Origin: a virus
Direction: 5' to 3' (one strand)
Length of the DNA: 64,000 nucleotides
IMG/VR virus record: IMGVR_UViG_3300045988_037604
Within the stretch, counting starts at the first letter, position 1, and each line of letters opens with the position of its first letter. The notes under the pieces were generated by a model, which was not told the origin of the DNA, searched no databases, and was given only the letters and a program-made list of their open reading frames with translations. The position numbers and the translations under genes are program-made. This document shows positions 6,218 through 62,975 of this stretch, in pieces.

Positions 6218-8833
6218 ATGGTATATCAATTAAAAAGAACTCAAACTAATAATAGACCTCAAGCATTTTGGGGTTCTCTTATTCCTTCAGCATTAAGTTT
6301 TGTTGGAGGTCTTATTACTAGTAGTCAGCAAGCTAAAGCTCAAAGACGAGCTTTGGAAGAACAACAAAGACTTGCTAAACAACAACTTGATATTAGTAAT
6401 CAAAATCAATTAGCTACTACTCTTAATAACTATGCTATTGCTCAACAATCTTATGACGATAAAGATTACAATCTTAAATATCGTATAGGAGGAGTTAAAA
6501 GACTTGGTGGCAGAAATATTATGATTACTGATGGAGGTAATGCTAAGAGAATAGGAAACAACACATATCTTCTACGGGGGGGTTCTCATGAAGATATTAA
6601 TGAAACTGGTCAAACTGGCATAGGTATTAATGTTGGTGGTAATGAGATTGAAGCTGAAGGTGGTGAAGTTGCTCAACGTAAGGGCAACTCTTTACGTATA
6701 TATTCAGCTCAACCTATTCTTGGTGGTATAAGTCCTGCTGAAGCTATAATGAGAGGATATAATAAAGATAGAGTATTTAATGCTCAACAAAGATTTAAAA
6801 AGAATAATGGTATTAAAGATGACGGTAGTCAACAAAGAAATGGTGGTTTAACTTCTAAGGATAGAGGTTCTTCTAAACATCCTTATCCTTCTGTAGCATC
6901 TAAAGATTTTGCAGGTGGTAATAGAAGTTATCCTATTCCAACTAAAGCTGATGCTATTGATGCTTTAAGACTTGCAGGTCTTCATGGAAGAAGCGACGTT
7001 AGAAGTAAGGTTTATAGTAAATATCCTGAACTTAGAAAGAAAGTTGGAGATAATCGTCCTAAAGCTTTAGACGGTGACGAATTTACTCCAATAAAAGGAG
7101 GTTATTACCCTAAAAGTGATGAGCAACGAATAACTAATTGGATGTCTTATTGGTTAAATCATAGAAGAAAACAACTATATAATAATATGAAAAAAACTTC
7201 TATTAGAAAAGAAGATGCTGGAAGTTGGTTAGGTAATGGTCGCCCTGAATTTACATTTAAACTTATAAAAGGTATGTCTCCTGAAAGAAGAAAAATAAAT
7301 GGAGTATTTTATAATCAAATAAATAGAGCAGCCAATGCAACAATAGATGAATTTAATACTATTAGTAATCCTAATTATCTTGGAGAATTTGATGAAGATG
7401 GAAAATTGATAAGATATAATATTAAAAATAAGAAATTTAATAATGGTGTTAGAGTACATGAAAGAACTCATGCTTCTGATGCTTATCCTCAATATAAAGC
7501 TATAGAAGATATTTTAAAGAAAGGAAAAGTTAATTTTCCAAATAGTGAATTTATAGATGATGAAGCAAAACATTATCATACTGACCCAAATGAAATATAT
7601 AGTAGAATAATGCAATATAGATATAATAATAAATTAAAACCAAATCAAGTTGTAGATAAGAAATACATTAATTCTCATAGAAAACAACTTAAAGATTTAG
7701 ATTTAAATATATTTGATGATAATACTCTTAGTAAATTTTTTAATGAAGTTGCAGATAATGGAAAAAGAAATAATACAAATTCTACATATATAGCAAGATT
7801 TGGTACTTATTTTAATAATAATACTAGACATATTGCTAAAAGAATAGGAGGTCTTACTAACCCCCCCGTAGAAAGATTTAAATGTGGTGGTCATATAAGA
7901 CCTAAAGCAGAAAAAGGTATGCTTGCTCCTATTTATAGTTATGGTAGTGATAGAAGAAGACTTCCTTCATTTGCTCCTATAGATGTTACTCCAAGAGCTA
8001 TTCCAAATTTTAAACTTGTATCTGCTCCAACTAATACAAAAACTCCTTTTGACCCAAATAGTGTTCCTTTTTTAGGAAATCAATCTACTTTTAAACCTGC
8101 TACTCAAGATTATATTGGTTTAGGTATTGATACTCTTGCTGCTTTAGGTAGTGGAATGTTTACTCGTTCTGCGTATAATAAAATGAATTTTGATTATGCT
8201 TTACCTAATTATGTAGATGAATCTCCAGTAGCATTTGATACAACGTATCATAATGAAGCTCAACAAGCAAATATAGAACGTAATAGACTTAATGCTCGAA
8301 ATTTGATTAGAGGTAATACTGCTAGTGCTCAAACATCTTTAGGTCGTATGCAACAAAGCGATGTAGATGCTATGATGGAAACTAATAAACTTCTTGATGA
8401 AAAGAGTAACAAAGAAGTTGAACTTAGAAATCAAAATGCTGCAAATGAACAACAAGTTCGTGCTAGAAACGCTGCTGCTAGAAATCAGTATTATCAAAAT
8501 GTTGCACAAATTAAAAATGCTGCAATTGAAGCTAAAAACAATATGGAGCTTGCTAAGGCTCAAAGTATTGGAGCAGATTTAAGTGGTCTTTCTCAAGCAT
8601 GGACTAATTTTGCTGGTAGTGTTGAAAGTAGATATGATAATCGTCAAAAAGAAGCTATTATTGCTGCTACCGCTAAAGACCCTGCTGTATTATCTAACGC
8701 TGTTCAATTTGGATATAATTTTAGTCCTGAAGTTCTTGCTGCTATTTATAATAGTACAGATGATGATAATCTTAAAAGTTTAGCATTATCACAATTAAGT
8801 ACTAAAAATAGACTTAGATATGGTATTAGATAA
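6218..8833 (+). CDS. virion structural or ejection protein (871 aa), function unknown
   Basis: ATG lies 1 nt after the previous stop. There is an N-terminal hydrophobic segment (FWGSLIPSALSFVGGLITS) and a Q/N/A-rich coiled-coil-like C-terminal third. It carries motif copies at 6571 and 7859 in frame. Confidence 0.7.
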   Translation: MVYQLKRTQTNNRPQAFWGSLIPSALSFVGGLITSSQQAKAQRRALEEQQRLAKQQLDISNQNQLATTLNNYAIAQQSYDDKDYNLKYRIGGVKRLGGRNIMITDGGNAKRIGNNTYLLRGGSHEDINETGQTGIGINVGGNEIEAEGGEVAQRKGNSLRIYSAQPILGGISPAEAIMRGYNKDRVFNAQQRFKKNNGIKDDGSQQRNGGLTSKDRGSSKHPYPSVASKDFAGGNRSYPIPTKADAIDALRLAGLHGRSDVRSKVYSKYPELRKKVGDNRPKALDGDEFTPIKGGYYPKSDEQRITNWMSYWLNHRRKQLYNNMKKTSIRKEDAGSWLGNGRPEFTFKLIKGMSPERRKINGVFYNQINRAANATIDEFNTISNPNYLGEFDEDGKLIRYNIKNKKFNNGVRVHERTHASDAYPQYKAIEDILKKGKVNFPNSEFIDDEAKHYHTDPNEIYSRIMQYRYNNKLKPNQVVDKKYINSHRKQLKDLDLNIFDDNTLSKFFNEVADNGKRNNTNSTYIARFGTYFNNNTRHIAKRIGGLTNPPVERFKCGGHIRPKAEKGMLAPIYSYGSDRRRLPSFAPIDVTPRAIPNFKLVSAPTNTKTPFDPNSVPFLGNQSTFKPATQDYIGLGIDTLAALGSGMFTRSAYNKMNFDYALPNYVDESPVAFDTTYHNEAQQANIERNRLNARNLIRGNTASAQTSLGRMQQSDVDAMMETNKLLDEKSNKEVELRNQNAANEQQVRARNAAARNQYYQNVAQIKNAAIEAKNNMELAKAQSIGADLSGLSQAWTNFAGSVESRYDNRQKEAIIAATAKDPAVLSNAVQFGYNFSPEVLAAIYNSTDDDNLKSLALSQLSTKNRLRYGIR
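6571..6584 (+). repeat. G7-core motif copy S1 (forward)
   Basis: atatcTTCTACGGGGGGGTTctc, inside gene 6218..8833, read CTA-CGG-GGG-GGT (LLRGG). Confidence 0.9.
7859..7872 (-). repeat. G7-core motif copy S2 (reverse)
   Basis: The plus strand reads actAACCCCCCCGTAGAaag, inside gene 6218..8833, read AAC-CCC-CCC-GTA-GAA (TNPPVE). Confidence 0.9.
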
Positions 8834-8846
8834 CTAAAATAAATTA

Positions 8847-8892
8847 AATACTTCTGATGGTGTTGTAACTGTCAGAAGTATTACTTATTTTT
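8847..8892 (+). terminator. rho-independent terminator after the 871-aa gene
   Basis: An 11-bp stem (8847-8857 aatacttctga / 8872-8882 tcagaagtatt) with a 14-nt loop, followed by a T-run at 8888-8892. It sits 14 nt after stop codon 8831-8833. Confidence 0.6.
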
Positions 8893-8921
8893 GTCATATT
8901 AATCTTTTAAATAATAAACAA

Positions 8922-10013
8922 ATGGCAAATCCAAAACAATATCAAGGAATACAAATAGGTGGTGTAGTTCCACAAAGAATACTTGGACAAAGAGATTTAT
9001 CTCCTCTTCAAAATTATGTTCAGACTCGTAATCAAATGTGGGAAGATGCTATTAAACAAAAATCTGCTATTGATGTAGCTTTAGGTAATCTTAAACTTAA
9101 TGCTGCTGAAGATAAATGGAAATATGATTATGGTCGTAGGATTCAAAAGAAGATTGATGATGCAGCTAAATTTGGTGATTATAGTAGAGCTTTAGATACT
9201 GCTGTACTTGAAGCTGGAAAGGCTGTTTCATCTCCTGAAGTTATGGGTCGTATTCGAGCAAATGAAGCTTATAAGAAAAAGAAACAAGAAGTTGATACTA
9301 ATGGTAATATTAGTGCTTTAACTAAGAAAGCTTGGAATATTGAAAATAAATATCACTATCAAGATACTTATGACGATGAAGGAAATATAGTAGGTGGTAG
9401 TGAATGGAATGCTAGTTGGGAACCAGTTGAAGAAGTAGATAATTTAACTATGATGAAAAATGCTATTTCTATGATTGGTATTAGTAGTAGAGAATCTTCT
9501 AGAACAACAGGTGATAATACAACTACTGCTGAGGGTACAGGTTCTAGTTTTCAAAAAGTTAGAGGTTCTAGTAGAATGGGTCTTTCTTATGCTCAAGTTA
9601 AATCTCAATTAGTAGATGTTATAAATAATGACCCTAAATGGAAAGCTAGTCTTGAACAAGAATATAGAGTTAATAAAATTCTTCTTAAAGATATTGATAC
9701 TCAAATTGCTAATACTCAAGACCCTTTGGAAATACAAAGACTTAAAGAGCAAAAGAATATGTATCAATCTAACATAACTAACGATAGAGGTTTTATAACT
9801 GCTAATTATGTAAATATTTTATTTAAGAAATATCCTAGTCTTATTAAGAATTTTGCATTTAGTAGAACTTCTAGTACTTCAACAGATATGACTGGAAAAG
9901 ATGATTATGCTAGAGGAAGTGGAAGTGGAAAAGGTTCTATGGAAGGCAAAGGTCCTTACGCTCCATCAGATAATCCGCAAGATAGTGTTTATGGTCCTCA
10001 AGGTAAAAATTAA
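8922..10013 (+). CDS. hypothetical virion protein (363 aa)
   Basis: ORF-track ORF on the module strand with protein-like composition. I recognise no motif. Confidence 0.7.
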   Translation: MANPKQYQGIQIGGVVPQRILGQRDLSPLQNYVQTRNQMWEDAIKQKSAIDVALGNLKLNAAEDKWKYDYGRRIQKKIDDAAKFGDYSRALDTAVLEAGKAVSSPEVMGRIRANEAYKKKKQEVDTNGNISALTKKAWNIENKYHYQDTYDDEGNIVGGSEWNASWEPVEEVDNLTMMKNAISMIGISSRESSRTTGDNTTTAEGTGSSFQKVRGSSRMGLSYAQVKSQLVDVINNDPKWKASLEQEYRVNKILLKDIDTQIANTQDPLEIQRLKEQKNMYQSNITNDRGFITANYVNILFKKYPSLIKNFAFSRTSSTSTDMTGKDDYARGSGSGKGSMEGKGPYAPSDNPQDSVYGPQGKN

Positions 10014-10025
10014 ATAAATAATATT

Positions 10026-14900: not shown

Positions 14901-17900
14901 ATCTTAATTCTGGTCTTAATTATCGTCTTGGTAAGCAAATCCAAGAATTACTTGGAATGAGAGATAAAATTAAAGAAGCTAGAAATAAAGCTAAAGATTC
15001 TGAAGAAAAAAATGCTCCTGTAGAAGAAGGTAAAACTTCTACTGAATCTACAAGTACTAACACTACTGGTCAAGCTGCTGCAACTCAAAGTCAATCATCG
15101 ACACAAAATGCTTCAAATTCTTCGTCACAAGGCGTTCAATCACAGCAGACAAATAATCAATCAAGTGCACAACAAAAGTCGCCTACAAGCAAAACAAATA
15201 AGGAAAAATCGAATGTTACACAACAGAAATCAGAGTTTACACCAAAGAAATCAATAAATTTGATTTTTGATAAAGATGGTAATCCTACAAAAGCTAATAA
15301 TGTAGATGATGGTTATGAACTTGTAGCTGGAGAAGATGGAACTTATGAACTTACAGGAGCGAAACGTACTGATGATAGATTTTATAATAATACTGACATT
15401 GCTACTAACGATGAAACTCAAATAGTTTATAATCCTTATTTCAAATTTGATGATGAAGGTAATGTTATAAGTTTTGAAAAAGGCAAACTTGGTACTCAAG
15501 CTGATGTAGATGCTTATGAAAAAGCTTTAGATGAAGCTGAAAAACAAAAAGAAGAACAAGCTCAAGATGAAGAACAATCATCAAGTCCTTCTACGGGGGG
15601 GTTATCAACAGAACCTGAAAGTCAAACTTCTAGTGACCAAACTACTCAAGTTGAAGAAGAAACTAAACCTGAAGAAAAACCTGAAAATAAGAAAGAAGAA
15701 AAGAAAGGTCTTTCTCTTGAAGAACAAGATGAATTTAAAGAAAGAATGAGCAAAAAGATTCTTAATGATGTTAAAGCTAATCCAGATTTAGATTTGTCTG
15801 TTGCTAAAGAAGAGTATATTACTGAAGCAATTAAAATAGGTTATAGTGAAGAAGAAGCCAAAGAAATGACTGATAAATGGTTTAAGCTTCCAATTATGGT
15901 TCAGAAAATGATGAAAGCTAAAGATAAAAAATATGCTTCTATTCCTGACCTTATAGTAATAACTGCTGATAAAGCTCTTGATAGATTTAATAAACTTGTT
16001 AAAGAATATAATAATATTGCTAATGAATTTCTTAAAGAATATGCTTCTAATGTAAATCTTCCTGTTCGTAATGGAAAATATTATGGACGTCTTGAAGATA
16101 TTCTTAGATATGTAGAAGATGTAACTAAAGGTACTGAATCTTCTGATTTTATATTTGATGCTATTAAAAATTATCTTAAAACTGATGAAGCAAAAGAATT
16201 ATTTGTTTTAACTGATGAGAAAAATGTAGATAATGCTAATTATTTATCAAATACTCATAAAACTACATATCAAAGAAATGTAGAAAGAATTACAGGTAAT
16301 GTCATTAATACAATAAATATTAATAATCTTTCTGAAATTCTTGATGAAGATGGAATCAAAGCTGCTGAAAAAGAATTATCATTAATAGAACCTGGAAATG
16401 AACTTGATGTAGAAATAAGTACTAAACTTAATAAAAATACACAAGTTATTCTTTATAAACATAATGGAGTTGTTATAGGTTGGCAAGCTCTTTCTGATAT
16501 AAATCAAAATACTGGTAGAAATGTTAGAATTGCTGATTGTTGGCGACATGAACTTGATTTAAGTAAATCCGATAATGATGGAGCTGCTAAAGATTTCTTT
16601 AAACAAATTCTTAATCGTGAAGGAGATTTTGCTACTCTTGATGATATTATTCATAGTGTAGCTTTTGATAAACTTTCTAAAAAAGAATTTAAAGAATTAG
16701 TTACAGCTTTTGCTACTCATCCAAAAATTCAAGAAGCTATTAAAGATGGTATTCTCATAATAAACCAAGAAAAAGGATTTACTTATGAAAAGGCTTTAAA
16801 TGGTGTTGCTAAAATATGGAGATATAATTATGAATTTAAAGACTATAATGAAGTATTAAGTGCATCTATTGATGATTATTATAATAAACTTAGAAGTGAA
16901 ATATCTACTGCTAATTTGATTACTGATGGAAAACATACCATAACTGTAGGTATGATGTCTAAAGGTGAAGTTATAAGAGCTAAGGATAAAGAACTTAAAG
17001 AAGATGGTACTACTAGAAATACATCAGAAGTTGTAGCTCCTATAGCTACTGCGTTAAGTGCTGGTACTGAAGCATATATTGGTGTAGGTACTAACAATTA
17101 TGTTACTATATCTGGATTAGGTGCTCGTAATTATGGTACTACAGGTGAAGCTAAAAATAATCAAACATATCTTTGTCTTCCTAATACAAATGGAACTATA
17201 GATTATGTTGCAGCATACCCTATTACTCTTAGACCGATGACTTATATACATGATGGTAAAGAAACTGAAATACCAACAAATCAAGTTCTTGAAACATTAG
17301 TACAATCAGTTATTGGTCAAATACAAGAAAGACTTCTTAATGTAAAAGATTTTAATGATTGGAATGACCTTAGAAATTTAATTGCTAATATTTATTCTTT
17401 TGATAAGAATGGCATTCTTGGTGGTATAAGAGTTTATTATGATAATTATGGTAATGTTCAACTATTTTGTGATAATGGAAATAAATATACATTATTTGCT
17501 AAAAATGTTAAAGGTAATGTTCCTAATATAATTAAAGTTGAAGTTAATGGAGAAAAAAGAAATGTTTCTTTTGGAGAAGCAGCAAGTTTACTTGAAGATG
17601 ATATTAGAGAAAATACAAGAATTAATATAAATAGCACTCTTATTGCTGCTGATAATAATAGAGCTATGCCTATCAAAAACAAATTTATTTATTATGATAA
17701 AGAAGGTTTTCATATAAATATTCCTGCTTATAATGGACAAAATGCTTTTAATATAAATGCTAGTTCTTACAATAGTTTTCTTATAAATAATAATCTTCTT
17801 AGAGTAGATTTAGCTCAAGAGAATAGTTCTAATTATAGAAAAACTGCCATTAGAAAACCAGGAGGTAATCAAAATTTAACTATAAATATTCATGATAAAA

Positions 17901-19129
17901 TAGAGCAAGAGAACCCCCCCGTAGAAGATATTGAAACTTCAACACCTGTTAATACTTTACAATCAGATATTAACACTATTCTTAATGATGAAAGTATTGC
18001 TTCTAAAGGTATAGCTATTGCTGAAAGATTAATGTCTAATACAGCAACACAAAATTATGAAACTCTTAAAAATAAAGTTAAAGGTCATAAATATTCAACA
18101 GTATTTGATGGTTTATTTCCTGAAAATATTATTTTTGACGATGAAGCTATACAAAAAGAAAAGACTAAAGATAAAGACAATACAAATGTTGTAGCTTATT
18201 ATGATGCTAAAACAGATAGCATTGTTGTTGGAAATGATTGGCTTAATATAGCTTCTGACCCTAAACTTGGTGGAGGTAATCGTGCTGCTAGAGTTTTAAT
18301 TCATGAAAATCTTCATAAACAAATTAATGCTAGTCGAAATAAAGAAAAAGCTAAACGACAACTTAAAACAATTTATGATGATTTTGTTCAAGCAATAGAT
18401 GCTGATATTCTTGATTTATCTGCTGGTAAATTTAAAGAAGTAAATGCTAGACATGGTAATATATTTGAAAATGAAAATCATGCTAAAGATTTTATTAATC
18501 ATATTGCTGAATATAAATTTGATAAACTTCTTGATAAGAACAAAGAAGATACTGCTATTGAAGAATTTATAGTAGAAAGTCTTACTTCTGAAGGACTTAT
18601 TCAATATCTTAATTCTGTTCATGTAGAAGGTGAACACCTTAAAAAAGGTAATAAATCTATATGGCAAAGAATTATGGAATTTATTAATAGTATATTTGGA
18701 TTTGATATAGCTGATGAATCTCTTAGAGCTAAAGAGTTTAATACTCTTGCTAAAGCTTTTAGTAATGAGAAGAAAACTAAAGTACAAGAAGGAACTTTAA
18801 ATTTTAAAGAAGATGAAACTCAACAAACAAAAACTGATAATGTTATATCACAACAAGAGAGTGAAACTAAAGATATTTCTGAAGAAGAAGTTCAATCAGA
18901 AAAAGATGAAGATGAAACAGAAGATATTGGACTTGTAGATAATAATATTGATAAAGCTACAGAAGATGAATTTGATGAAGATGATGATTTAGATTTTTCT
19001 TCTGTTCCTGATAAAAGTCTTAATTCATATTCGACTGTTTTCGATTCTATTACAAGTCTTCCATTGTCAGAACAAGCCAAATTTGCTTCATTAATTGAGC
19101 AAGGTGAAGTTTCTGTCACTTGTCGATAG
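11978..19129 (+). CDS. giant virion cargo/ejection protein (2383 aa) with a zincin-type HExxH motif
   Basis: Uninterrupted 2383-codon ORF ending in TAG 19127-19129. VLIHENLHKQI gives HENLH at nt 18302-18316. It has an S/T/Q-rich linker (about 15040-15250), a K/E-rich linker (about 15650-15740) and an acidic C-terminus (about 18880-19010). Crassvirales place giant ejection proteins next to the virion RNAP gene. Confidence 0.65.
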   Translation: MDTTQFINKGGYEVLNPLWSKSKKNTQPKTIISASPQQGGLAETFYRANPSNFVFEGANKYLRYGITPNRVSPNLDKELADAQSNWAKGFNSISQAVISETLLGTLKAFPDLFDAITNGFLQSDGDYQNPISNKLQEWQDYFNNEVAPIYSDPTRADILHGGLTNFGWWASNLPSVMSSLTLLIPSTGIIKGVGYLGKLTKIGARTRKGLRALSGVNKAIDEGKTLNGFQKAIVGATSGMESKFSRFASLSANALLQRTMENYQEAQGVYKDMYSDAYDKLNNMSDEEYADFVNKNKQLVEEAGGDSSNKDAIARRIAKRSADEDFKFNYWNVGFDILQMYGLRNMWKGIKSGESSGTLNKVLREQKARVGKTAEEFEKYQQNLSKWTKLRNNLADRLKGEKVVVAGELSEGLEEAINTIAQEEGMHVGKELIGEDIHSSFDNRLQKYLQSGAIYDSAFWGVMGGVVFHHLGSGFGRLQQTLEDKANSKVDDKTGESKKKSPFSISELGEVKSRREDMNSWSAITNTYIKRAQEIKEGKNPYSIGEDDKTLKGEADIQAAKQKADDDFITDITLNAAHKGNLDYLRTFMSSDEVRKAMVEKGVVSEAESKEHQQKILDKIDSTIDSYTNNLSKLINLVDNNALNKAHKNDIVPIEYLQGIASNNVKYQQTIKSIGLREQQYDQLIVDAFANEDIQKVLGNKYTPEQFRAAASHALISNTMAALYAEKKRLMKNKLTLSDKVAIDNIDRTLKEYGEMLNDNEYRLTVAHMINSDFDEKGNIVKNPTNIGEEFDNIFIGKDVTGANDQTDAQIISNFKAFAKKYNFNERLGNFESEENVLDQLRKHNITTTEINNLIVKADKVGLPSDTFSKLLVTRSDIELNRRYNQAQLVTTADTLSKELSFLQNTMNETRKKVIDNSYKFINGLADKYKDGENNSIKQAIDAYYVDNDKDFDSATSFMTASEKSSFKEALDALHLNSGLNYRLGKQIQELLGMRDKIKEARNKAKDSEEKNAPVEEGKTSTESTSTNTTGQAAATQSQSSTQNASNSSSQGVQSQQTNNQSSAQQKSPTSKTNKEKSNVTQQKSEFTPKKSINLIFDKDGNPTKANNVDDGYELVAGEDGTYELTGAKRTDDRFYNNTDIATNDETQIVYNPYFKFDDEGNVISFEKGKLGTQADVDAYEKALDEAEKQKEEQAQDEEQSSSPSTGGLSTEPESQTSSDQTTQVEEETKPEEKPENKKEEKKGLSLEEQDEFKERMSKKILNDVKANPDLDLSVAKEEYITEAIKIGYSEEEAKEMTDKWFKLPIMVQKMMKAKDKKYASIPDLIVITADKALDRFNKLVKEYNNIANEFLKEYASNVNLPVRNGKYYGRLEDILRYVEDVTKGTESSDFIFDAIKNYLKTDEAKELFVLTDEKNVDNANYLSNTHKTTYQRNVERITGNVINTININNLSEILDEDGIKAAEKELSLIEPGNELDVEISTKLNKNTQVILYKHNGVVIGWQALSDINQNTGRNVRIADCWRHELDLSKSDNDGAAKDFFKQILNREGDFATLDDIIHSVAFDKLSKKEFKELVTAFATHPKIQEAIKDGILIINQEKGFTYEKALNGVAKIWRYNYEFKDYNEVLSASIDDYYNKLRSEISTANLITDGKHTITVGMMSKGEVIRAKDKELKEDGTTRNTSEVVAPIATALSAGTEAYIGVGTNNYVTISGLGARNYGTTGEAKNNQTYLCLPNTNGTIDYVAAYPITLRPMTYIHDGKETEIPTNQVLETLVQSVIGQIQERLLNVKDFNDWNDLRNLIANIYSFDKNGILGGIRVYYDNYGNVQLFCDNGNKYTLFAKNVKGNVPNIIKVEVNGEKRNVSFGEAASLLEDDIRENTRININSTLIAADNNRAMPIKNKFIYYDKEGFHINIPAYNGQNAFNINASSYNSFLINNNLLRVDLAQENSSNYRKTAIRKPGGNQNLTINIHDKIEQENPPVEDIETSTPVNTLQSDINTILNDESIASKGIAIAERLMSNTATQNYETLKNKVKGHKYSTVFDGLFPENIIFDDEAIQKEKTKDKDNTNVVAYYDAKTDSIVVGNDWLNIASDPKLGGGNRAARVLIHENLHKQINASRNKEKAKRQLKTIYDDFVQAIDADILDLSAGKFKEVNARHGNIFENENHAKDFINHIAEYKFDKLLDKNKEDTAIEEFIVESLTSEGLIQYLNSVHVEGEHLKKGNKSIWQRIMEFINSIFGFDIADESLRAKEFNTLAKAFSNEKKTKVQEGTLNFKEDETQQTKTDNVISQQESETKDISEEEVQSEKDEDETEDIGLVDNNIDKATEDEFDEDDDLDFSSVPDKSLNSYSTVFDSITSLPLSEQAKFASLIEQGEVSVTCR
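15590..15603 (+). repeat. G7-core motif copy S3 (forward)
   Basis: aagtcctTCTACGGGGGGGTTatc, inside gene 11978..19129, read TCT-ACG-GGG-GGG-TTA (SPSTGGL). Confidence 0.9.
17912..17925 (-). repeat. G7-core motif copy S4 (reverse)
   Basis: The plus strand reads gagAACCCCCCCGTAGAagatat, inside gene 11978..19129 (ENPPVED). Bases 17909-17931 are the exact 23-nt reverse complement of 6565-6587. Confidence 0.9.
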
Positions 19130-22200: not shown

Positions 22201-25200
22201 GAAGTAGGTAAAGGACATAAACATTTTGTAGAATATAATGATAAAACTAAAGGTCTTACATTTACTGGTAGTTTATTTAGAGATGATAGATTTATTATAA
22301 CTAATGATGATGGTACTACTACAAATGTAGCACAAGATTTAATGGATAAATTATTCAGTTCTCTCTACGGGGGGGATAAAGATGCTTATATTCCTTTTAC
22401 ATCTAATGGCGACAAAGTTGAAGTTAATTTGACTGATGAACAAAACGAAGAAGTTACTAAGATGATTAGTGACTTTATAACTAGCTATGTCAATCAACAA
22501 GTTGAAAAGTTTGATGATTTTAAAAATCTTGATGTCGCAGGTCTTATTAATGACCAAAATGTAGCTGATTTTGTACTTAATACTAGACTTACTTATATTT
22601 CATTTAATGACTTGTTTGAAGGAGATACTAAATTTTATAAAGATACTCAAACTTTCTTGAAGCGTAGTAAGGAAAGTCAAGCTAGTGGTGTACCTTATGG
22701 TTTCTGTGATTATGTTAGTGATTATTCTAGTACGTCTGTTGCTGTTGAAGGAGCTTATCTTAATGATGGAGAAATTCAAAAAAGATTTGCTAATTTTAAA
22801 AATCCTCTAGATGTTAAACAAATGACTAAGTTTAGAGGTATAACTATTAAAAATACTGTTAGAACTTCTGAGCAATGTAAAGTAGATACAGAAGATGTTA
22901 CAGGTAAATTAACAGATAAAGATGGTAGTCTTGTTAAAGACCTTGTAAAAAATGCTGGACTTACAGTTGAACAAGCTAGAACTTTAATGAAAGGTTTTAT
23001 TAAAACTACTGTAAATGATGCTCAATCTTATATTACATTTGAAGAATGGATTCGTCGTGTAGCTGGTCGTGGTCAACTTGCTAAATATTTACCTCTTATT
23101 GAAAAGATTCAAAATGATGAACCTCTTAGTAGTGCTGATATTAAAGAATTTGTTCAAGTTCAAAAGAACTTTTATTATGACCAATATTTTGACCCTGTAA
23201 CTAAGAAATTTGTTCCTCGTCAAATTAAAAATGCTGAATTTGTTCTTGTTCCTAGATTTATTAAAGGTACTCAACTTGAACAAGTTTATAATCTTATGAA
23301 AGATAATCATATTGATCAACTTAATACTGAAGAAACTTCTAAAGCAGGTAAAGCAAGAGTTCTTGAAATATTTAATTCTAAAACAGGTGAAGTTACTCAA
23401 GAACATATTGATGATTTCAATGCTCATGCTGATGCTTATGCTGAATATTATGATTACAATCATCTTTATACCCAACAAGAAACTCCACAACATATGGATG
23501 CTGAGAATAAAGCTGGTATTCAAATTATGAAGAAAATTATTGATAATATCCCAGTTAATAGTCCTCTTTATGATAAAAAACAAGAGTTCTTTAGACTTTA
23601 TTCTGCTAATATTAAAGATAGTTTTAATACTCTTGCTGATGAAATTAATATTCCAAGAGACGAAAATGGCAATATTAAATTTAATGATGATGGTACTATT
23701 AGTGGCATAGATTATAAAGTATTCTTCTCCAAACTTAAAGAAGAATGTATGCGTCTTGGTCTTGATAGTAATATGATGGATTATGTAACTTTAGCTGAAC
23801 AAGCTATTAATCCTATGACTGGAAGACCTAATCCTAATATGCCTATGATTCTTAGTAATGTTATTACTAAGCTTGAAAGTGTTAGTCAATCAGTATTTAA
23901 TAGAAATATCACTCGTCAAAAACTTCCTGGTTTTCATGCTGCTCAAATTACTAATGTTGGTTTTAAAGCTACTAAAGACCAAGTAAGTTATTCTAAAGAA
24001 CTTCGTTATCATCCTGTAACTAAAGAACATCCTGAAGGAGAACGTTATATCGAAATAATGCTTCCTAAAAGTAATTTTAATTTTGCTAAAAATGAAGATG
24101 GTACATATAAAGACGTTGATGAAGTTAGAGATGAAAATGGTGAACTTGTAGGAGGTCTTTTAAAACAACTTCAAGATGCAAAACTTGATACTCTTATTGG
24201 TTATCGTATTCCAACTGAAGGTAAACAATCTGTTTGTGTAATGAAAGTAGTTGGATTTCTTGATGATGCTCAAGGTTCAACTATTGTAGTACCTGATGAT
24301 TGGGTTTCTCAAACTGGTTCTGACTTTGATATTGACTCTGTATATGGTATTCAATATAGTAGTTATATAGATAAGCATGGTAATATTCGTAAACAAAGTT
24401 ATTCTGAAGAACTTGATATTTATGATTATGCTAATTATATAAATAGACATCTTGAAAAAGCTGATAAAATTAAAGATAAATCAGTTAAAGCTGCTTTTGA
24501 TGCTCTTAACAAAGAAATAGATGAAGCTTTTGATAAATCTCGTAAGGAATTATCTGAAGAAGAAACTCAAGCTTATAATGCTTTATCTGATGAAACTAAA
24601 GAACTTGTAAAAACTGCTCATAATGTTTTTGAAACTCAAGCTGTAAGAAATAAAGAAACTGGTAAACTTACAAAAGATAGTTATCTTAAACAACTTCAAT
24701 TTGTAGCTGATTATATTCGTACTAATAAAACTAATCTTGACAATGCTGATGATAATTTTATTTCAGTACATGAAGATATAGTAGATGCTATTAGTAATGA
24801 ATATATAGATAAACGAATTGCTAAATCAGATAGAGTTAAGAAAATTCTTCAAGATAGAATTGATAGATTTAATAATAAAGCTAAAGAATTAGGTCTTATG
24901 ACTTATGAAGAGTTTTTACAACAAAGTCCTGAAGAAGCTAATACTCGTAATGCCAGAAATAATAAACTTCTTGATGATATGATTGATATTCTTGAATCTA
25001 ATGAATCTCTTGAAGAAAATCTTTCTCGTTCTAATTTTGATGATATTATTGCTGCTCGTGATAAAGTTATTAATCCTGTAGTTAAAGATATTCGTGAAGC
25101 TAGAAGTCCTTATGATTTTCTTAACCAAGCTGATTATCAAGAAGATGTTATGAGTGGAGCTAAACTTAAAGCATTTAGTGTTACTCGTGATACATTTGTG

Positions 25201-33060: not shown

Positions 33061-33072
33061 CCCGCCCGTAGG
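33059..33072 (-). repeat. motif copy S7, interrupted-G variant (reverse)
   Basis: The plus strand reads gatAACCCGCCCGTAGGaag and overlaps the TAA stop of the RNAP gene. Its reverse complement is cttCCTACGGGCGGGTTATc. Confidence 0.7.
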
Positions 33073-33105
33073 AAGTATTGATATTAAATATTAGTTAAAC
33101 TCTAA

Positions 33106-33160: not shown

Positions 33161-33231
33161 TGGAGTATCGTATAATGGTAGTACAGAAGATTTTGGTTCT
33201 TCTAGCATAGGTTCGATTCCTATTACTCCAA
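33161..33231 (+). tRNA. tRNA-Gln (anticodon UUG)
   Basis: Hand-folded cloverleaf. Acceptor TGGAGTA/TACTCCA, D arm GTAT-AATGGTA-GTAC (GG present), anticodon arm GAAGA-TT[TTG]GT-TCTTC, 4-nt variable loop, T arm ATAGG-TTCGATT-CCTAT, discriminator A. CCA is not encoded. Confidence 0.85.
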
Positions 33232-33318
33232 CTAATAGTAAAATTTAAGTTGTTACTTATAATGTTAGGTTAAGTGGTTAAAGATAGGCTGTTTTGAATG
33301 GTAATTATCCCATGTTCG

Positions 33319-35733: not shown

Positions 35734-35866
35734 ATCTTTATCAATTTTATTAGCAACAATACAAAGATAATAAAAAGTAGCAGATTTTAGCCACATTTTT
35801 ATAAAAAATAGCATCAACCTGCCACTTATTATGTGCTAACTAATTGATATTCAGATAGTTAAGTAG

Positions 35867-35897: not shown

Positions 35898-36056
35898 TTA
35901 CTGATATAACTTATCTGCACTACAAACATACTCATTATCTTTAAAACTAGCAACATTATCAATAGAATAATTACTATAATAAAGAAAGTTTAATAATTCA
36001 GCCTCTCTACGGGGGGTTTCTAGTTCATCTAGTACTTCTAAAACTTCTAATGACAT
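35898..36056 (-). CDS. possible small ORF (52 aa) containing motif copy S8
   Basis: Hand-translated as MSLEVLEVLDELETPRREAELLNFLYYSNYSIDNVASFKDNEYVCSADKLYQ, from ATG 36056-36054 to stop TAA (plus tta 35898-35900). Below the ORF-track size cutoff. Helical-looking sequence. Confidence 0.3.
   Translation of the reverse strand: MSLEVLEVLDELETPRREAELLNFLYYSNYSIDNVASFKDNEYVCSADKLYQ
36006..36018 (+). repeat. motif copy S8 (forward, G6)
   Basis: gcctcTCTACGGGGGGTTtct in the 35.8-36.1 kb spacer. On the minus strand it lies in the candidate 52-aa ORF, read ACC-CCC-CGT-AGA (TPRR). Confidence 0.8.
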
Positions 36057-36086: not shown

Positions 36087-36100
36087 AGCCTGCCCGTAGG
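36087..36100 (-). repeat. motif copy S9, interrupted-G variant (reverse)
   Basis: The plus strand reads AGCCTGCCCGTAGGgag; its reverse complement is ctcCCTACGGGCAGGCTat. It lies 81 nt from S8 in inverted orientation. Confidence 0.6.
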
Positions 36101-36123
36101 GAGACTTATTTATTGGCTTATAA

Positions 36124-43633: not shown

Positions 43634-43783
43634 AACATTTTATTCAGTACAATTATAATTATTCATTTTATTTAATATTTCAAATTCTTATTTGTTCACA
43701 AATATAATCATTTCTGATTAATTATATTACAGACATAATAAAACCGCTCACGTAAAAGAAAAACTGCATAAATGCGAATATTT

Positions 43784-43797
43784 CCTACGGGGCGGTT
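43784..43797 (+). repeat. motif copy S10, interrupted-G variant (forward)
   Basis: atatttCCTACGGGGCGGTTATa, intergenic, 6 nt from the stop of gene 43806..44156. Confidence 0.7.
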
Positions 43798-46727: not shown

Positions 46728-47871
46728 AACTAAGAGTTTCTTTAATAAATTTATCTATTTCATCTTTAGTGTATTTATCATGCAAATCTGCAAAATCTTT
46801 ACATCCATAATCACTAAGACCAAATTCACCACAAGTAATAAATAAATAAGGAATATTATATGTTTCTAGAAGATATTCAGCTCCTTCTCGACCAGTTCTG
46901 TCAAAATCTAGAAAACTAAGTATCATTCCATTATTAGATAATTTCTTTTTTATCCATTCATATTCATTAGCTTTAAGTCTATAATTCTCACTAGGAAGAT
47001 TAATTACTCCTATTTTTAGAAGTTTTCCAGCCCCCCCGTAAAGAGGTTTGTTTGTTAAATGACTTCCTAAACTAAGTCTATCTTTACTACTTTTAGTAAT
47101 TATAATATAATCATAATCATCTAATTCAAGATTAGGTAGACCTTCGAGAACATTACAATTAGTAATAAACTTTAAATCAATATGTCTATTCCTAAGAGGA
47201 AAATATAGTTTAATCAAATAAATACCTTGTTTATTTTGTCCAAGCATATAAGCATAACAAGGGTCTTTACTAACATATCTATATTTAGGTTCAGGATTAG
47301 AACTTCTATTGATGTAATATTGGTCAACAGGAATTACAAAATGAGTATTAAGATAAGCAAGATTTACATTCCATTTATCCCATATTCTTTTATCTTCTTT
47401 ATTCCATGAACGTGGAACAAGTTCAATAATAGCTTTACGATCTTTACTTTTAAATAAAGCATTTTTTATATCATCATCTGTAGAATAATCATGTTCACGA
47501 TTATCTATAACATCTGCAAATGTTCTATAAATATGTTTTAATATAAAATAAAAATCTTGTTTGTTATCAGTACTAATAAGTCTTTCATAAGCAATACTAA
47601 GAACATAAGCTACAACTCCATATACATCTTCAAAGAAACCAAAACCTCCAAAATCTCTGACTTTAAGTCTACCTTTTCTATTATAAGCAATACCCATACT
47701 ACCATCAGTATCATCATCTCTAAATACAGATTTTATAAGATTATTATGTTCAATACAATTTTGAACAGTTTCTATGGGAATATTTAGATATTTACTTACA
47801 ATATCTTCTTGACTTATACGAGATTCAATAAATGCTTTAGTTAAATGAGCAGTATTTATATTTCGTTTCAT
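46642..47871 (-). CDS. TOPRIM (DnaG-like) DNA primase
   Basis: LSFLDFDRTGREGAEYL resembles the DnaG TOPRIM DxD-x-AG motif. The ORF-track start at 47913 is GTG and lies inside a terminator hairpin. ATG at 47871 (MKRNINTAHL...) is preferred. Confidence 0.55.
   Translation of the reverse strand: MKRNINTAHLTKAFIESRISQEDIVSKYLNIPIETVQNCIEHNNLIKSVFRDDDTDGSMGIAYNRKGRLKVRDFGGFGFFEDVYGVVAYVLSIAYERLISTDNKQDFYFILKHIYRTFADVIDNREHDYSTDDDIKNALFKSKDRKAIIELVPRSWNKEDKRIWDKWNVNLAYLNTHFVIPVDQYYINRSSNPEPKYRYVSKDPCYAYMLGQNKQGIYLIKLYFPLRNRHIDLKFITNCNVLEGLPNLELDDYDYIIITKSSKDRLSLGSHLTNKPLYGGAGKLLKIGVINLPSENYRLKANEYEWIKKKLSNNGMILSFLDFDRTGREGAEYLLETYNIPYLFITCGEFGLSDYGCKDFADLHDKYTKDEIDKFIKETLSYVELRYRKENLCNSDAYYERLSNFDLPY
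47029..47042 (-). repeat. G7-core motif copy S11 (reverse, TTTAC variant)
   Basis: The plus strand reads AGCCCCCCCGTAAAgagg, inside the primase gene. The sense strand reads CTT-TAC-GGG-GGG-GCT (LYGGA). Confidence 0.8.
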
Positions 47872-50895: not shown

Positions 50896-52308
50896 TTAAT
50901 CTACAATACAATAATCAGAATTATTATCAATTTTAACATCTATATCTTTTTTATTAACAATAACATGATTAGATGATAGTTGTTTATCATTGATTGCTTT
51001 TTCTTCTAATGTATTTTCGCAATAAAGACTATATAATATAATAGGTATATTAAACTTACATTTACTCAATCTGTATATATAAGATTTTATATCATCACAA
51101 AGACTTGACGTAATTATTAAAACGTCTACATCTATATTAAGTTCTTTATCAGGACTATTTGTTGTTGATATAATGCTTATTTTTCCAAGATTAAATAATT
51201 GTTGGATAAGTTTCTTTTGGTTCGTTACACCCATTATTTTTTGCTTACCTTTCTTAGCTCCAGTTTTATAATAAATAGGATTACCATCCTTGTCTATAGC
51301 TGGAATTGATTCTAATTTGTCATGAAAACTTTTACATACTTCTTTATTATATTTAATGTTTATATTATTAGTTAATTCATCTGCAAAATCTGCAAACTTA
51401 TTTATTATAAGAATCTTTTTATCTTTATAACTATCAATAATATCTATAATAGCATTAATCTTATTTGAATAATTAGCAAGAAGTCTAGCTCTTTTTCTAA
51501 TCATTTCATAAGTAGAATTAGCTCTTTCTTTTATTGCTATAGGATTATAAAGCTTATCTATTTGTTGATTATATTCTGTACTCATATCTAGATATTCATT
51601 CCAACCATTATCTCTAGCAAGTTTATCACAATATGCCATACTAGAAGCATTATTTGTGTTATTACCAGACATAGCAATTTTTATATTATCTAGACCTCCA
51701 AATATATTAAGTGACATTCTAATATTGTCATTATAGTATTGAAGAAGTTTAGCATCATTAGTATCATCTTTAATAGTGATAGGAATACGATACTCTTCTA
51801 CGGGGGGGTTAGTACGAATATTATCGACATCATTTTGCTTAAACTCTTTAACAATAGGACAACAAGAATAAAAACTATCTTTAGTTCTACCATCAAGAGG
51901 TTTAGTAATAATTACTAATTTATATGTGCTTTTATCTAATATTCCTAAATGAACAAAAGTAAAACTAATAGGATTGTAAATAATAGTAAGAGTAGGTTTA
52001 TACAGATTAATATTATCAGCAACCCAACTATCAGTTAATACATGAATTTGTCCTTTATTAATCAAATTTAGAAAAATACTATCATAATTATTCTTTTGAT
52101 TAGTAAGATATTCTTTGATATAATCTTTATCTTCAAAGTCTTTAACTAAAATAAGTACATTACACGTAGGACTTCTATTAAATAGTCTAGGAAGAAGAAG
52201 ATAAATAGGTCTAACACTATCTAAAGGATGAGGTATTAGAAGACTTCCATTACCATTACGAGCATTCCATCTTTCGATAGCATCATTAAACATTTCTTCT
52301 TGTGTCAT
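50896..52308 (-). CDS. SF2 (SNF2/DEAD-like) helicase-related protein (470 aa)
   Basis: The C-terminal half KKILIINKFADFADELTNNI...GKISIISTTNSPDKELNIDVDVLIITSS looks like a helicase C-terminal RecA domain. The N-terminal Walker motifs are not recognisable. It contains motif copy S12. Confidence 0.4.
   Translation of the reverse strand: MTQEEMFNDAIERWNARNGNGSLLIPHPLDSVRPIYLLLPRLFNRSPTCNVLILVKDFEDKDYIKEYLTNQKNNYDSIFLNLINKGQIHVLTDSWVADNINLYKPTLTIIYNPISFTFVHLGILDKSTYKLVIITKPLDGRTKDSFYSCCPIVKEFKQNDVDNIRTNPPVEEYRIPITIKDDTNDAKLLQYYNDNIRMSLNIFGGLDNIKIAMSGNNTNNASSMAYCDKLARDNGWNEYLDMSTEYNQQIDKLYNPIAIKERANSTYEMIRKRARLLANYSNKINAIIDIIDSYKDKKILIINKFADFADELTNNINIKYNKEVCKSFHDKLESIPAIDKDGNPIYYKTGAKKGKQKIMGVTNQKKLIQQLFNLGKISIISTTNSPDKELNIDVDVLIITSSLCDDIKSYIYRLSKCKFNIPIILYSLYCENTLEEKAINDKQLSSNHVIVNKKDIDVKIDNNSDYCIVD
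51797..51810 (+). repeat. G7-core motif copy S12 (forward)
   Basis: atactcTTCTACGGGGGGGTTagta, inside gene 50896..52308. The sense (minus) strand reads ACT-AAC-CCC-CCC-GTA-GAA (TNPPVE). Confidence 0.9.
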
Positions 52309-54585: not shown

Positions 54586-55151
54586 ATAATATTAATTTCA
54601 TATCCATTATAATTATTATCTTTACTAGCACTATACCATTTAGTTAGATGATTACAAAATTCTTTATATTTATCATCATCTATGTATTTAATAAAAGGAG
54701 AATAACTAACACAATATCCTCTAATATTACCATTATCTTTAGTAATATATAGTTTATCAGTTTTATTACTTATATCTGTTATAGATAAAAATAGTTTAGC
54801 TGCATCACCAAGTAATAATATTTTTACGGCATGAGTATTAACAATATCTCTAATTGTATGTATAATACATCTACTAATAATATTACTATTTAGAGGACAT
54901 TTATCAGTCAATTTACATCTAATAAGTGGAACTATAAAATAATCGTTTAGCCCCCCCGTAGAAGGACTTAATGCTTCATTTATTATTTCCACATATTTAC
55001 TAAATGTCATTCCTTTATTCTTATAAGCATTATAATCAACATTAGGTACAACTATTATTTTACCATAAAGAGGATTACCAACACCTTTAAGACAATGACA
55101 TTTATCATTAAATAGTCTTAGAGGACAATCTTTACATACATTATAAGTCAT
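54582..55151 (-). CDS. uracil-DNA glycosylase superfamily protein (family 4-like)
   Basis: N-terminal Cys cluster CKDCPL...KCHC, then GVGNPLYGKIIVVPNVD in place of the G-x-G...GEAPG block. 4-nt overlap with polB. It contains motif copy S13. Confidence 0.5.
   Translation of the reverse strand: MTYNVCKDCPLRLFNDKCHCLKGVGNPLYGKIIVVPNVDYNAYKNKGMTFSKYVEIINEALSPSTGGLNDYFIVPLIRCKLTDKCPLNSNIISRCIIHTIRDIVNTHAVKILLLGDAAKLFLSITDISNKTDKLYITKDNGNIRGYCVSYSPFIKYIDDDKYKEFCNHLTKWYSASKDNNYNGYEINII
54949..54962 (-). repeat. G7-core motif copy S13 (reverse)
   Basis: The plus strand reads AGCCCCCCCGTAGAaggactt, inside the UDG-like gene. The sense strand reads AGT-CCT-TCT-ACG-GGG-GGG-CTA (SPSTGGL). Confidence 0.9.
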
Positions 55152-58519: not shown

Positions 58520-58855
58520 TTAAGCTCCCCCATAGAGGAACTTAATAATGTCAGCATTTTCTTCTTCTATTTTCTTACAAGCATTAAGAATAACATCAAT
58601 ACTTTTATGTCTAACTTTAATTATATCTCTAATTACAGTAGTCATATCATGTTGACTTAATCTCATAAGATGATAAATTGTTTTAAAACCTTTACGAGTA
58701 TTAAGAGAAAAGTTATAAGGAATAATATAACCTCTACGATGTGGAGGATTCTTATTAGTTTTAAGAACATAACCACTACATTCTACAACTTCTCCAAAAA
58801 CAGGTCCACCACAATGTTTTAAATCATAATTATAAGCACAAGTAGTACATAACAT
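58520..58855 (-). CDS. hypothetical protein (111 aa)
   Basis: ORF-track ORF. The C-terminal FLYGGA is encoded by the degenerate motif copy S14. Confidence 0.6.
   Translation of the reverse strand: MLCTTCAYNYDLKHCGGPVFGEVVECSGYVLKTNKNPPHRRGYIIPYNFSLNTRKGFKTIYHLMRLSQHDMTTVIRDIIKVRHKSIDVILNACKKIEEENADIIKFLYGGA
58523..58536 (-). repeat. degenerate motif copy S14 (reverse)
   Basis: The plus strand reads AGCTCCCCCATAGAgga; its reverse complement is tccTCTATGGGGGAGCT. It encodes the C-terminal LYGGA of gene 58520..58855. There are two mismatches in the core. Confidence 0.35.
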
Positions 58856-60175: not shown

Positions 60176-60196
60176 AATCTTATTGTTTTTAGTTTA

Positions 60197-61432: not shown

Positions 61433-61557
61433 AATATTATCTTATTTATTTAATATTTTAATTTTGAATATAAAGCTCTCAAATTATATCAATGAATAAG
61501 CATTCATAAAAATAATTCAAGAGCCAAGAAACTAATGTAATTTAATGAAAATCAAAA

Positions 61558-61969: not shown

Positions 61970-62138
61970 AATATCCTTTATTAATTAAGTGAACACTTGT
62001 ACAATCAATAGTTACACCATCAGTAAAACCATTAATTATACATAAATTTCTAATAGCACAGTCTTTACAACTTATACCACCATCAACAACATCATATAGA
62101 ACATCATTGATTATTATCTTGTCTATTTTTATCTTCAT
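61953..62138 (-). CDS. hypothetical Cys-containing protein (61 aa)
   Basis: ORF-track ORF with a 17-nt overlap downstream. Confidence 0.55.
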   Translation of the reverse strand: MKIKIDKIIINDVLYDVVDGGISCKDCAIRNLCIINGFTDGVTIDCTSVHLINKGYYEETK

Positions 62139-62223
62139 ACGTAATAAAATAAAAAACCTCTACTACTTTCACAAGCAATAGAGGCAAAAATTGTTGATAT
62201 TTTAATTGTTTAATTTAAACCAT

Positions 62224-62652: not shown

Positions 62653-62678
62653 AATAAGTTCTCCTTAATTATTAATTG

Positions 62679-62819
62679 TTATTCAAATTCTATATCACAA
62701 TCATCGTTGTTATCTTCAACCATGATTTCACCAAATAAATCATAATCATCAATATCATGATTTACACAATAAGCATCTATATCAACAGAAGCTTCATCAA
62801 TATAATCATTATCTATCAT
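62679..62819 (-). CDS. possible very acidic small protein (46 aa)
   Basis: Hand-translated as MIDNDYIDEASVDIDAYCVNHDIDDYDLFGEIMVEDNNDDCDIEFE (19 of 46 residues are D or E). Confidence 0.35.
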   Translation of the reverse strand: MIDNDYIDEASVDIDAYCVNHDIDDYDLFGEIMVEDNNDDCDIEFE

Positions 62820-62835
62820 AACAATATAAAAATTA

Positions 62836-62921
62836 AATAGGTGGTGTGCATTTAAATTTGCGACGGAATTGTATTAACTCTTAAACACTAAAGCGAATAC
62901 TTAGTTTGACTTCCACCTATT
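62836..62921. other. 9-bp inverted repeat enclosing 68 nt (possible structured RNA or operator)
   Basis: aataggtgg 62836-62844 pairs with ccacctatt 62913-62921. Inside is an ATTTAAAT palindrome within tgcATTTAAATttgcg, and a 5-bp inner stem gtatt 62871-62875 / aatac 62896-62900. It has no tRNA cloverleaf. Confidence 0.3.
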
Positions 62922-62961
62922 ATATTAATTAATCTATTGCAAAGATAAACAATAATATCTT

Positions 62962-62975
62962 TCTACGGGCGGGTT
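62962..62975 (+). repeat. motif copy S15, interrupted-G variant (forward)
   Basis: atatctTTCTACGGGCGGGTTATa, intergenic, 33 nt from the stop of gene 63011..63445. Confidence 0.7.

Follow-up and report, generated by a model that had tools for sequence, protein, structure and literature searches.

A dispersed polar DNA word in crAss-like phages of the Intestiviridae, with same-strand copies kept apart

The window, a stretch of 64,000 nucleotides of viral DNA (IMG/VR record IMGVR_UViG_3300045988_037604), belongs to a crAss-like phage of the family Intestiviridae, has a G+C content of 27%, and carries 15 copies of an asymmetric word whose consensus in context is YYTYCTACGGGGGGGYT. The comparisons described here make it very probable that this word is an old polar DNA signal of the Intestiviridae, selected as nucleic acid, whose copies are kept apart when they share a strand and are placed independently of one another when they lie on opposite strands. 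Same-strand copies repel over a few kilobases (kb), hardly any being less than 2 kb apart, and the convergent pairs proposed in an earlier note on this DNA are not the unit of organization. A strand-specific signal for replication or recombination is tentatively favored as the function of the word.

Genes in the window run rightward to about 33 kb and leftward beyond. The nearest public record is cr8_1, a crAss-like phage of the subfamily Obtuvirinae within the Intestiviridae, with about 79% DNA identity to the window over the replication genes and 73% protein identity in PolB. The source genome measures about 95 kb, of which 82.4 kb was mapped (the window with 8.9 kb of left flank and 9.4 kb of right flank, the remaining 12.7 kb lying outside the map), and a search of IMG/VR for the rest of it returned only relatives that are about 80% identical. 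Proteins of this genome were found unchanged on contigs in 44–50 blocks of the assembly collection, indicating that the sequence is not an assembly oddity. The window was compared with six complete relatives (cr8_1, ctcc615, cr271_1, p-crAssphage, cr3_1, and crAss002); these seven genomes cover three subfamilies and provide a pooled set of 175 motif copies and 174 neighboring pairs, and the first 100 kb of crAss001, a member of the Steigviridae, served as a negative control.

With at most one mismatch, CTACGGGGGG is matched 13 times in the window, compared with 0.10 matches expected from shuffled sequences (the largest value in any shuffle being 1), and two weaker copies, 36087-36102(-) and 58523-58538(-), have two mismatches. 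The family-wide pattern YYYYYAYGGG[GC] (YYYYYAYGGGS) recovers precisely the 15 sites of the earlier note and no others in the window, and the flanks add five sites, at -1316(+), -804(-), 67754(-), 69090(+), and 72458(+), for a total of 20. The same pattern occurs 19–34 times in each of the six complete relatives, with 31 copies in prototypical crAssphage and 30 in crAss002, which is culturable, and gives two chance matches in the 100 kb of crAss001; in every Intestiviridae genome examined, the word is the most over-represented long word. crAss001 has an enriched 9-mer of its own, CTTCTGGAG, with 27 exact copies on both strands, 38 copies of CTTCTGGA, and about 74 times the expected frequency; 14 of its 37 neighboring pairs share orientation, so this 9-mer does not alternate.

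The word has an invariant core, Y-A-Y-GGGG, with a pyrimidine run before it and lineage-specific flanks after it, and it spans 16–27 nucleotides overall. Within genes, sense copies use all three frames, encoding LRGG, STGG, or LYGG, and antisense copies use two, encoding NPPVE or PPRR; a peptide motif is ruled out by this occurrence in three frames and both orientations. Homologous sites bear the variant of their own lineage (Table 1) even where the difference is non-synonymous, as with TCT-ACG (Ser-Thr) versus TTT-ACG (Phe-Thr) and NPPVE versus SRPVK. The presence of the word in all frames, sense and antisense, together with its in-step change despite an amino-acid cost, argues that it is selected as nucleic acid and not as peptide, and the concerted change across all copies of a genome indicates that it co-evolves with its reader, which would most simply be a phage-encoded factor. 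A literature search that included the motif strings and took in the 2023 Crassvirales review, the phi14:2 virion RNA polymerase study, and the p-crAssphage phage-plasmid study, with subscription-only papers outside its scope, returned no description of the word. The word itself is apparently undescribed; dispersed polar cis-elements as a kind are already known.

The earlier note had claimed that the orientation of the motif alternates almost perfectly along the window, and this is borne out. The order is + - + - + - - + - + - + - - +, with two same-orientation pairs among 14 neighbors (binomial P = 0.0065; permutation with fixed composition, P = 0.010). The alternation does not rest on weak copies, as the 13 strong copies give 2/12 (P = 0.019, binomial sum), and its extension over most of the genome, as the note had proposed, gives 3/19 for 20 sites (P = 0.002, binomial sum). 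The gene assignments were also correct, with pairs of sites inside the genes for proteins of 871, 2383, and 4613 amino acids (aa) and with the sites at 51800 and 54959 flanking polB (52312-54585), and a promoter set serving one direction is excluded, as the note had argued, about 45% of the copies being antisense to their host gene. Same-orientation neighbors number 2/14 in the window, 5/27 in cr8_1, 7/19 in ctcc615, 5/19 in cr271_1, 9/31 in p-crAssphage, 10/34 in cr3_1, and 6/30 in crAss002. All seven genomes have fewer than expected, with P values of 0.0007–0.03 in six of the seven and a range of 0.0007 to 0.18 among the six relatives. Polar sites with non-random alternation are thereby upheld in the source genome and in its six complete relatives.

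The alternation reflects a deficit of close same-orientation neighbors and not an excess of close pairs. Gaps shorter than 0.5 kb account for 22 of the 174 neighboring pairs, compared with about 23 expected under random placement, and every one of them joins copies of opposite orientation, the closest inverted copies being 27 bp apart. The same-orientation fraction rises from 0/22 below 0.5 kb to 3/23 at 0.5–2 kb, 14/61 at 2–4 kb, 16/43 at 4–6 kb, and 11/25 above 6 kb; beyond 5–8 kb the two orientations are mixed almost at random. Gaps between same-strand copies are regular, with a coefficient of variation of 0.32–0.59, and five genomes reach P ≤ 0.01 when compared with shuffled orientation labels. 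Same-strand exclusion combined with independence of the opposite strands implies that each strand carries its own evenly spaced series, with roughly one copy per 6–7 kb. Exceptions are found in the head-gene modules of cr271_1, ctcc615, and p-crAssphage, where runs of sense copies lie 3.5–8.7 kb apart, and in 27–38 kb stretches of cr271_1 and ctcc615 that are nearly without copies on one strand.

These data make it very unlikely that convergent pairs act as units, whether as traps for forks or translocases, loop anchors, or synapsis sites comparable to CTCF or Ter sites, as the earlier note had suggested. Convergent gaps are indeed shorter than divergent gaps in the window (medians of 2.7 and 4.6 kb) and in cr3_1 (1.6 and 3.5 kb), and large genes bear sense-then-antisense pairs, as that idea would lead one to expect. 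However, in cr8_1, p-crAssphage, and crAss002 divergent and convergent pairs are equally common at short range, so that close opposite-strand pairs are convergent in places and divergent elsewhere; close pairs are no commoner than chance, and single-orientation runs occur in the head-gene modules mentioned above. The note had asked whether partners and their spacing are conserved among relatives; the spacing largely is not, and the partner of a conserved copy shifts by thousands of bases between lineages.

Only about 6 of 30 positions are common to different subfamilies, which indicates that the alternation is maintained through site turnover and is not merely inherited. One of the shared positions is that of a sense copy 21% along the giant virion RNA polymerase gene, which occupies one alignment column in all seven genomes. 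Others are those of a sense copy at about 48% (relative position 0.45–0.52 in 7/7 genomes) and an antisense copy at about 83% of the 2383-aa gene, a homologue of the p-crAssphage gene annotated "RNAP-associated protein fused to zincin protease"; of an antisense copy at 36% of the helicase/SNF2-like gene, equal in relative position and orientation in 7/7 genomes; and of a sense copy 68% of the way along the primase gene, found at an equal relative position in 6/7 genomes, the primase gene of ctcc615 being without a site. Turnover is illustrated by the giant gene: four lineages each have an antisense copy after the conserved sense copy, but at four alignment columns that are not homologous, the column used by the Obtuvirinae differing from those used outside this subfamily.

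The best-conserved and longest DNA segment of the giant gene relative to cr8_1 spans 22144-25984 of the window, with 76.8% identity compared with 66–69% in its neighbors, and it almost exactly matches the interval from the sense copy (22367) to the antisense copy (25829). This match may be a coincidence, as the segment may be the catalytic core. The copies were rejected as boundaries of a recombination mosaic, since they do not fall at the ends of the segments that blastn aligned between cr8_1 and the window.

Among the 175 copies, sense and antisense orientations occur in a ratio of 95:80. About 70% lie inside open reading frames (ORFs), and intergenic DNA is nonetheless enriched three to five times. 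Intergenic copies sit just past the upstream stop codon in either orientation; a scheme with sense copies before starts and antisense copies after stops is ruled out, as both classes lie nearer the upstream stop. Sense and antisense copies differ at single positions: the G run of cr8_1 reads GGGGGGG in 10/13 sense copies and GGGGCGG in 12/14 antisense copies (P = 0.0018), crAss002 has TAC in 11/16 sense copies and TAT in 11/14 antisense copies (P = 0.014), and one position differs in the window (P = 0.007), all three P values being uncorrected. Distinct subtypes overall were rejected, the difference being weak (permutation P = 0.02–0.97) with only single positions standing out. In the window and its flanks, the G run is interrupted (GGGCGGG, GGGGCGG, GGGCAGG, or GGGGAGG) in 6/7 intergenic copies, namely those at 33059-33074, 36087-36102, 43782-43797, and 62960-62975 and the flank sites 67754 and 69090, and a perfect run of seven G is present in 11/12 copies inside ORFs. 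The interruption may guard against length slippage where no reading frame polices length.

The folding energy of the window copies equals background, with no significant secondary structure, and across the 175 copies (15 tested pairs in three registers) complementarity within sites equals that between sites, giving no hairpin covariation. Features of intrinsic terminators, a G+C-rich hairpin with a T run, are lacking at single copies, and only close inverted pairs could form a stem. In three genomes, some copies are trailed within 5–25 nucleotides (nt) by GC-rich hairpins with GCGAAGC, GCGGAGC, or GCGTAGC cores; GCGAAGC-type cores are a classical stable DNA mini-hairpin. Such mini-hairpin words adjoin a copy in 9/10 cases over the whole genome in p-crAssphage and in 6/10 in crAss002, and the window has none.

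The close pair at 36009/36097 adjoins a gene for a winged-helix protein of 187 aa (35254-35817, minus strand; Pfam HTH_27), which weakly matches p-crAssphage gp43, "RepL" (E about 1e-5 in a small database), and is a candidate reader of the word or replication initiator. A sequence search detected no homologue of this protein in the other five genomes, and a RepL-like winged-helix gene as a universal neighbor of close pairs was rejected, as neither cr271_1 nor ctcc615 yielded one. In cr8_1, cr271_1, and ctcc615, the homologue of a DUF932 gene, identified from annotations and a Pfam match, has an equivalent close pair next to it. In p-crAssphage, a close pair precedes each of the two RepL genes, and one of these pairs lies at the published predicted origin. 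That origin was predicted where two gene blocks diverge, and nanopore coverage falls away from there; the nanopore data also contained 92,394 soft-clipped read parts, 99.9% of which mapped back to the phage itself (PMC10983915).

Directly after the giant gene, a tRNA-Gln (anticodon TTG) is encoded at 33161-33232 on the plus strand, with a motif copy and a Bacteroides-type TAtcTTTG box before it. The layout of giant gene, motif, TAtcTTTG box, and tRNA-Gln recurs in cr8_1 and cr271_1, and the tRNA-Gln was the sole match in an Rfam scan. The primase had no match among solved structures and no Pfam family. The individual copies are listed in Table 1.

Table 1. Copies of the word in the window, copies adjoined by GC-rich hairpins in three relatives, and variants of the word in the related lineages.
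Feature	Position	Strand	Context or sequence
Copy, CTTCTACGGGGGGGTT	6569..6584	+	Sense, in 871-aa gene; encodes LLRGG; positional homologue at cr8_1 29631
Copy	7859..7874	-	Antisense, in 871-aa gene; encodes NPPVE; orthologous gene has a copy at about equal relative position at cr8_1 27568 and p-crAssphage 50977 (relative-position criterion)
Copy	15588..15603	+	Sense, in 2383-aa gene
Copy	17912..17927	-	Antisense, in 2383-aa gene (about 83% along); five genomes at one alignment column
Copy	22362..22377	+	Sense, in giant 4613-aa virion RNA polymerase gene; encodes conserved LYGG
Copy	25819..25834	-	Antisense, in giant gene; encodes NPPVE; common to four Obtuvirinae genomes
Copy, interrupted G run GGGCGGG	33059..33074	-	Overlaps giant-gene stop codon, upstream of tRNA-Gln; kept just past the stop codon in four Obtuvirinae genomes
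Copy, half of close pair (hub)	36004..36019	+	Antisense, in possible 52-aa ORF
Weaker copy, CTACGGGCAGG, other half of close pair	36087..36102	-	Intergenic, sense
Copy, GGGGCGG	43782..43797	+	Intergenic, antisense, 19 nt past upstream stop codon; TAtaTTTG box 81 nt downstream
Copy, TTACGGGGGGG	47029..47044	-	Sense, in primase gene, relative position 0.68
Copy	51795..51810	+	Antisense, in 470-aa helicase/SNF2-like gene, relative position 0.36
Copy	54949..54964	-	Sense, in 189-aa gene upstream of polB (homologue of cr8_1 uracil-DNA glycosylase gene); homologous to cr8_1 75215, where the lineage's variant turns Ser into Phe
Weakest copy, CTATGGGGGAGCT	58523..58538	-	Sense, overlaps stop of 111-aa gene; homologous to cr8_1 71512
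Copy, GGGCGGG	62960..62975	+	Intergenic, antisense, 46 nt past upstream stop codon
Hairpin-adjacent copies, p-crAssphage	6045, 28055-28200, 44930-44940, 95889		
Hairpin-adjacent copies, cr3_1	44024, 77166		
Hairpin-adjacent copies, crAss002	4225, 47861, 86188-86198		
Variant, cr8_1			ACATACCTTTTACGGGG[G/C]GGCTAGA
Variant, ctcc615 and cr271_1			CTTCTACGGGGGAGST
Variant, p-crAssphage			CCATCCTC[T/C]ACGGGG[A/G]GT
Variant, cr3_1			TTCCTYTACGGGGGARC
Variant, crAss002			CTCCTYTA[C/T]GGGGGAA

The reading favored here is that the word is a strand-specific signal of replication or recombination. One copy would serve several kb of its own strand, making a second copy nearby on the same strand redundant, and the process served would be strand-specific, a part of DNA metabolism required by both strands; the candidate preferred here is a site at which the phage's replication or recombination machinery, such as a primase or helicase, starts or is loaded where single-stranded DNA is exposed. 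That the word acts strand-specifically over a range of kilobases has about an even chance of being correct, and the narrower proposal of replication priming or loading, akin to the ssi sites of plasmids and phages, is tentative; as the overall best explanation, the reading is given a probability of about 0.3, judged from sequence comparison. The mini-hairpins adjacent to copies in three genomes count in its favor, being typical of signals that are read on single-stranded DNA. The origin predicted at the divergence of the gene blocks would mean that the main forks run with transcription, placing sense copies on the template of the lagging strand and antisense copies on that of the leading strand. 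Several observations weigh against this reading. The sense:antisense ratio is unlike that of a purely lagging-strand signal for origin-driven forks; the window copies have no significant secondary structure and the genomes no hairpin covariation, whereas structure is a feature of classical ssi sites; one relative has its primase annotated as DnaG-type, and DnaG-type primases normally recognize trinucleotides; and the long stretches of cr271_1 and ctcc615 that are near-empty on one strand imply that not every region needs copies on both strands. In addition, avoidance of direct repeats would account for same-strand exclusion just as well.

According to that alternative, which is possible but should not be considered probable, the word would be the site of a protein blind to orientation, such as a regulator or an organizer of DNA, and close direct repeats would be lost by slippage or by RecT/exonuclease annealing while inverted repeats survive. 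The complete absence of same-orientation pairs below 0.5 kb, the decay of the effect with distance, as deletion rates decay, and the tolerance of inverted copies down to 27 bp are all consistent with it, and the machinery is at hand, as the phage has genes for an annealing protein resembling RecT, an ExoX-like protein, and a ligase, and its relatives are annotated with RecT, exonuclease, and Gam. The head module nevertheless tolerates long runs of direct repeats, and the deficit persists at 2–4 kb, where deletion between short repeats is presumably very rare, leaving weak selection. Same-strand copies are no more diverged from each other than opposite-strand copies, and the suggestive differences between sense and antisense subtypes would go unexplained. 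Those differences would be accommodated if the word marked the boundaries of transcription units, as a promoter, a roadblock or terminator, or a stoperator (a repressor site that halts elongation) for the RNA polymerase of host or phage, with differing sense and antisense roles. The intergenic enrichment points in this direction, as do the close intergenic pairs, which are mostly antisense-then-sense along transcription; the antisense intergenic copies, which lie 9–26 nt past a stop and are often followed 67–93 nt later by a Bacteroides-type TAnnTTTG box; the bias of the late structural module to sense copies; the single-position differences in cr8_1, crAss002, and the window; and a sense copy about 270–340 nt upstream of the terminase gene (identified by annotation) in 7/7 genomes. 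A boundary mark is nonetheless unlikely, given that about 70% of the copies are within ORFs, that sense-then-antisense pairs occur in the middle of single giant genes, where start or stop signals would be senseless, that sense intergenic copies are likewise nearer the upstream stop than the downstream start, and that the subtypes differ little overall. The early transcripts that the virion polymerase makes in phi14:2, the only crAss-like phage studied, share no common upstream motif, which also speaks against it, and middle and late genes of that phage use host-type promoters.

Programmed single-strand nicks, which a nickase of the phage would introduce into both strands as happens in T5, tf, and phiKMV, are somewhat less plausible still. 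A long, asymmetric, strand-specific word with lineage variants would suit a site-specific nickase, the phages encode DNA ligase, HNH endonucleases are annotated in relatives, and even spacing on each strand would avoid close same-strand nicks. However, opposite-strand copies 27–100 bp apart would yield staggered double-strand breaks, the HNH genes are not conserved across the family, and the nicks of T5 are dispensable, whereas the present copies are held against protein-coding pressure. Read ends of p-crAssphage have been reported to be enriched in one region only, which argues in the same direction, although such short-read data are weak evidence on nicks. There is little likelihood of an RNA signal, either long-range pairing of sense with antisense copies or a hairpin of the G-rich strand with a UACG tetraloop. 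The consensus can form a G-U-rich stem of 4–6 bp closed around YAYG, and the sense copies of cr8_1 and crAss002 more often keep a hairpin-compatible variant, but partner copies carry different variants that would leave central mismatches, complementarity within the 175 sites is no better than between them, window folding is at background, and an RNA element would not explain the conserved antisense copies. The least probable proposal is that of small in-frame mobile elements with inverted ends (MITE-like), or of a chance or compositional artifact. Convergent copies do resemble terminal inverted repeats, and some lineage-specific copies lie in indel-rich loops; yet alignments of the tail tubular protein and the giant gene reveal no clean insertion spanning any pair, ORFs continue through the pairs, as much as 5 kb separates partners, and the whole family shares some of the positions, so that the alignments effectively refute a mobile element. 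An artifact is excluded by the 13 matches against 0.1 expected, by the crAss001 control, and by the recurrence of the proteins on 44–50 independent assembly blocks.

Among known systems, the ssi or primosome assembly sites (RSF1010 ssiA/ssiB, G4-type, and phiX174-type) are strand-specific, tens of nucleotides long, served by a dedicated primase or loader, and inverted on opposite strands; the classical sites, however, are small in number, cluster at origins, and have defined hairpin folds. The word resembles them in its strand specificity and in the close inverted pair of p-crAssphage beside a RepL-like gene and the predicted origin, and differs in its 20–35 dispersed copies, which lie mostly in ORFs and have no supported structure in this phage. 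Chi, KOPS, and SRS are also G-rich, polar, dispersed, and orientation-dependent, and are read by the tracking machines RecBCD/AddAB or FtsK/SpoIIIE. Those words are 5–8 nt long, specified by the host, and skewed with replication direction, whereas the present word is G-rich, polar, and dispersed but covers 16–27 nt, has lineage-specific flanks, is close to strand balance, and alternates within each gene block. The stoperators of Cluster A mycobacteriophages are asymmetric sites present in 20–35 copies and read by one co-evolving phage protein, and they are oriented with transcription and lie mostly between genes; the word is likewise asymmetric and spread in many copies over a phage genome, but it is antisense in about 45% of cases, lies in ORFs in about 70%, and is biased to the sense orientation in the head module only.

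The nicks of T5, tf, and phiKMV occur at a handful to dozens of sites with a long asymmetric consensus, those of tf on both strands. The present word is conserved far more strongly than would be expected of dispensable nicks, and its close opposite-strand copies would make breaks. Promoters of T7-family phage RNA polymerases are long, conserved, change with the polymerase, and all point with the genes, and N4 has three promoter hairpins at one genome end. The word resembles ...CTATA-GGGAGA of T7 promoters, with its G run where transcription would start, and departs from both kinds in having two orientations, copies inside genes, and no covariation-supported hairpin. The REP/BIME elements of enterobacteria alternate in orientation and form close inverted doublets between genes, as copies of the word also do, but they are palindromic, extragenic, and arranged in tandem clusters, while the word has no symmetry, with a Y run, then YAY, then a G run, and is found chiefly inside ORFs.

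No viruses of the human gut are more abundant than crAssphage and its relatives, yet little has been established about their replication, packaging, and gene control. The word adds a cis-acting signal that is older than the subfamilies of the Intestiviridae, is present in 20–35 copies per genome, and dictates amino acids in polymerase, helicase, and primase genes. As an oligonucleotide, the word could serve as bait for its reader, and its copies mark exact places to examine for nicks, primers, and transcript ends; it is also usable as a lineage marker, and recoding of genes in phage engineering would destroy copies. Same-strand exclusion is a simple and testable principle of genome organization, which may extend to other dispersed polar words. 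It is conceivable, though rather doubtful, that these phages program a strand-specific transaction, such as the start of lagging-strand or restart synthesis or the loading of a translocase, by means of a word placed on both strands every 6–7 kb and read by a phage protein that co-evolves with it. If so, priming or loading would be programmed by sequence along the whole genome of a double-stranded DNA phage, even through its essential genes.

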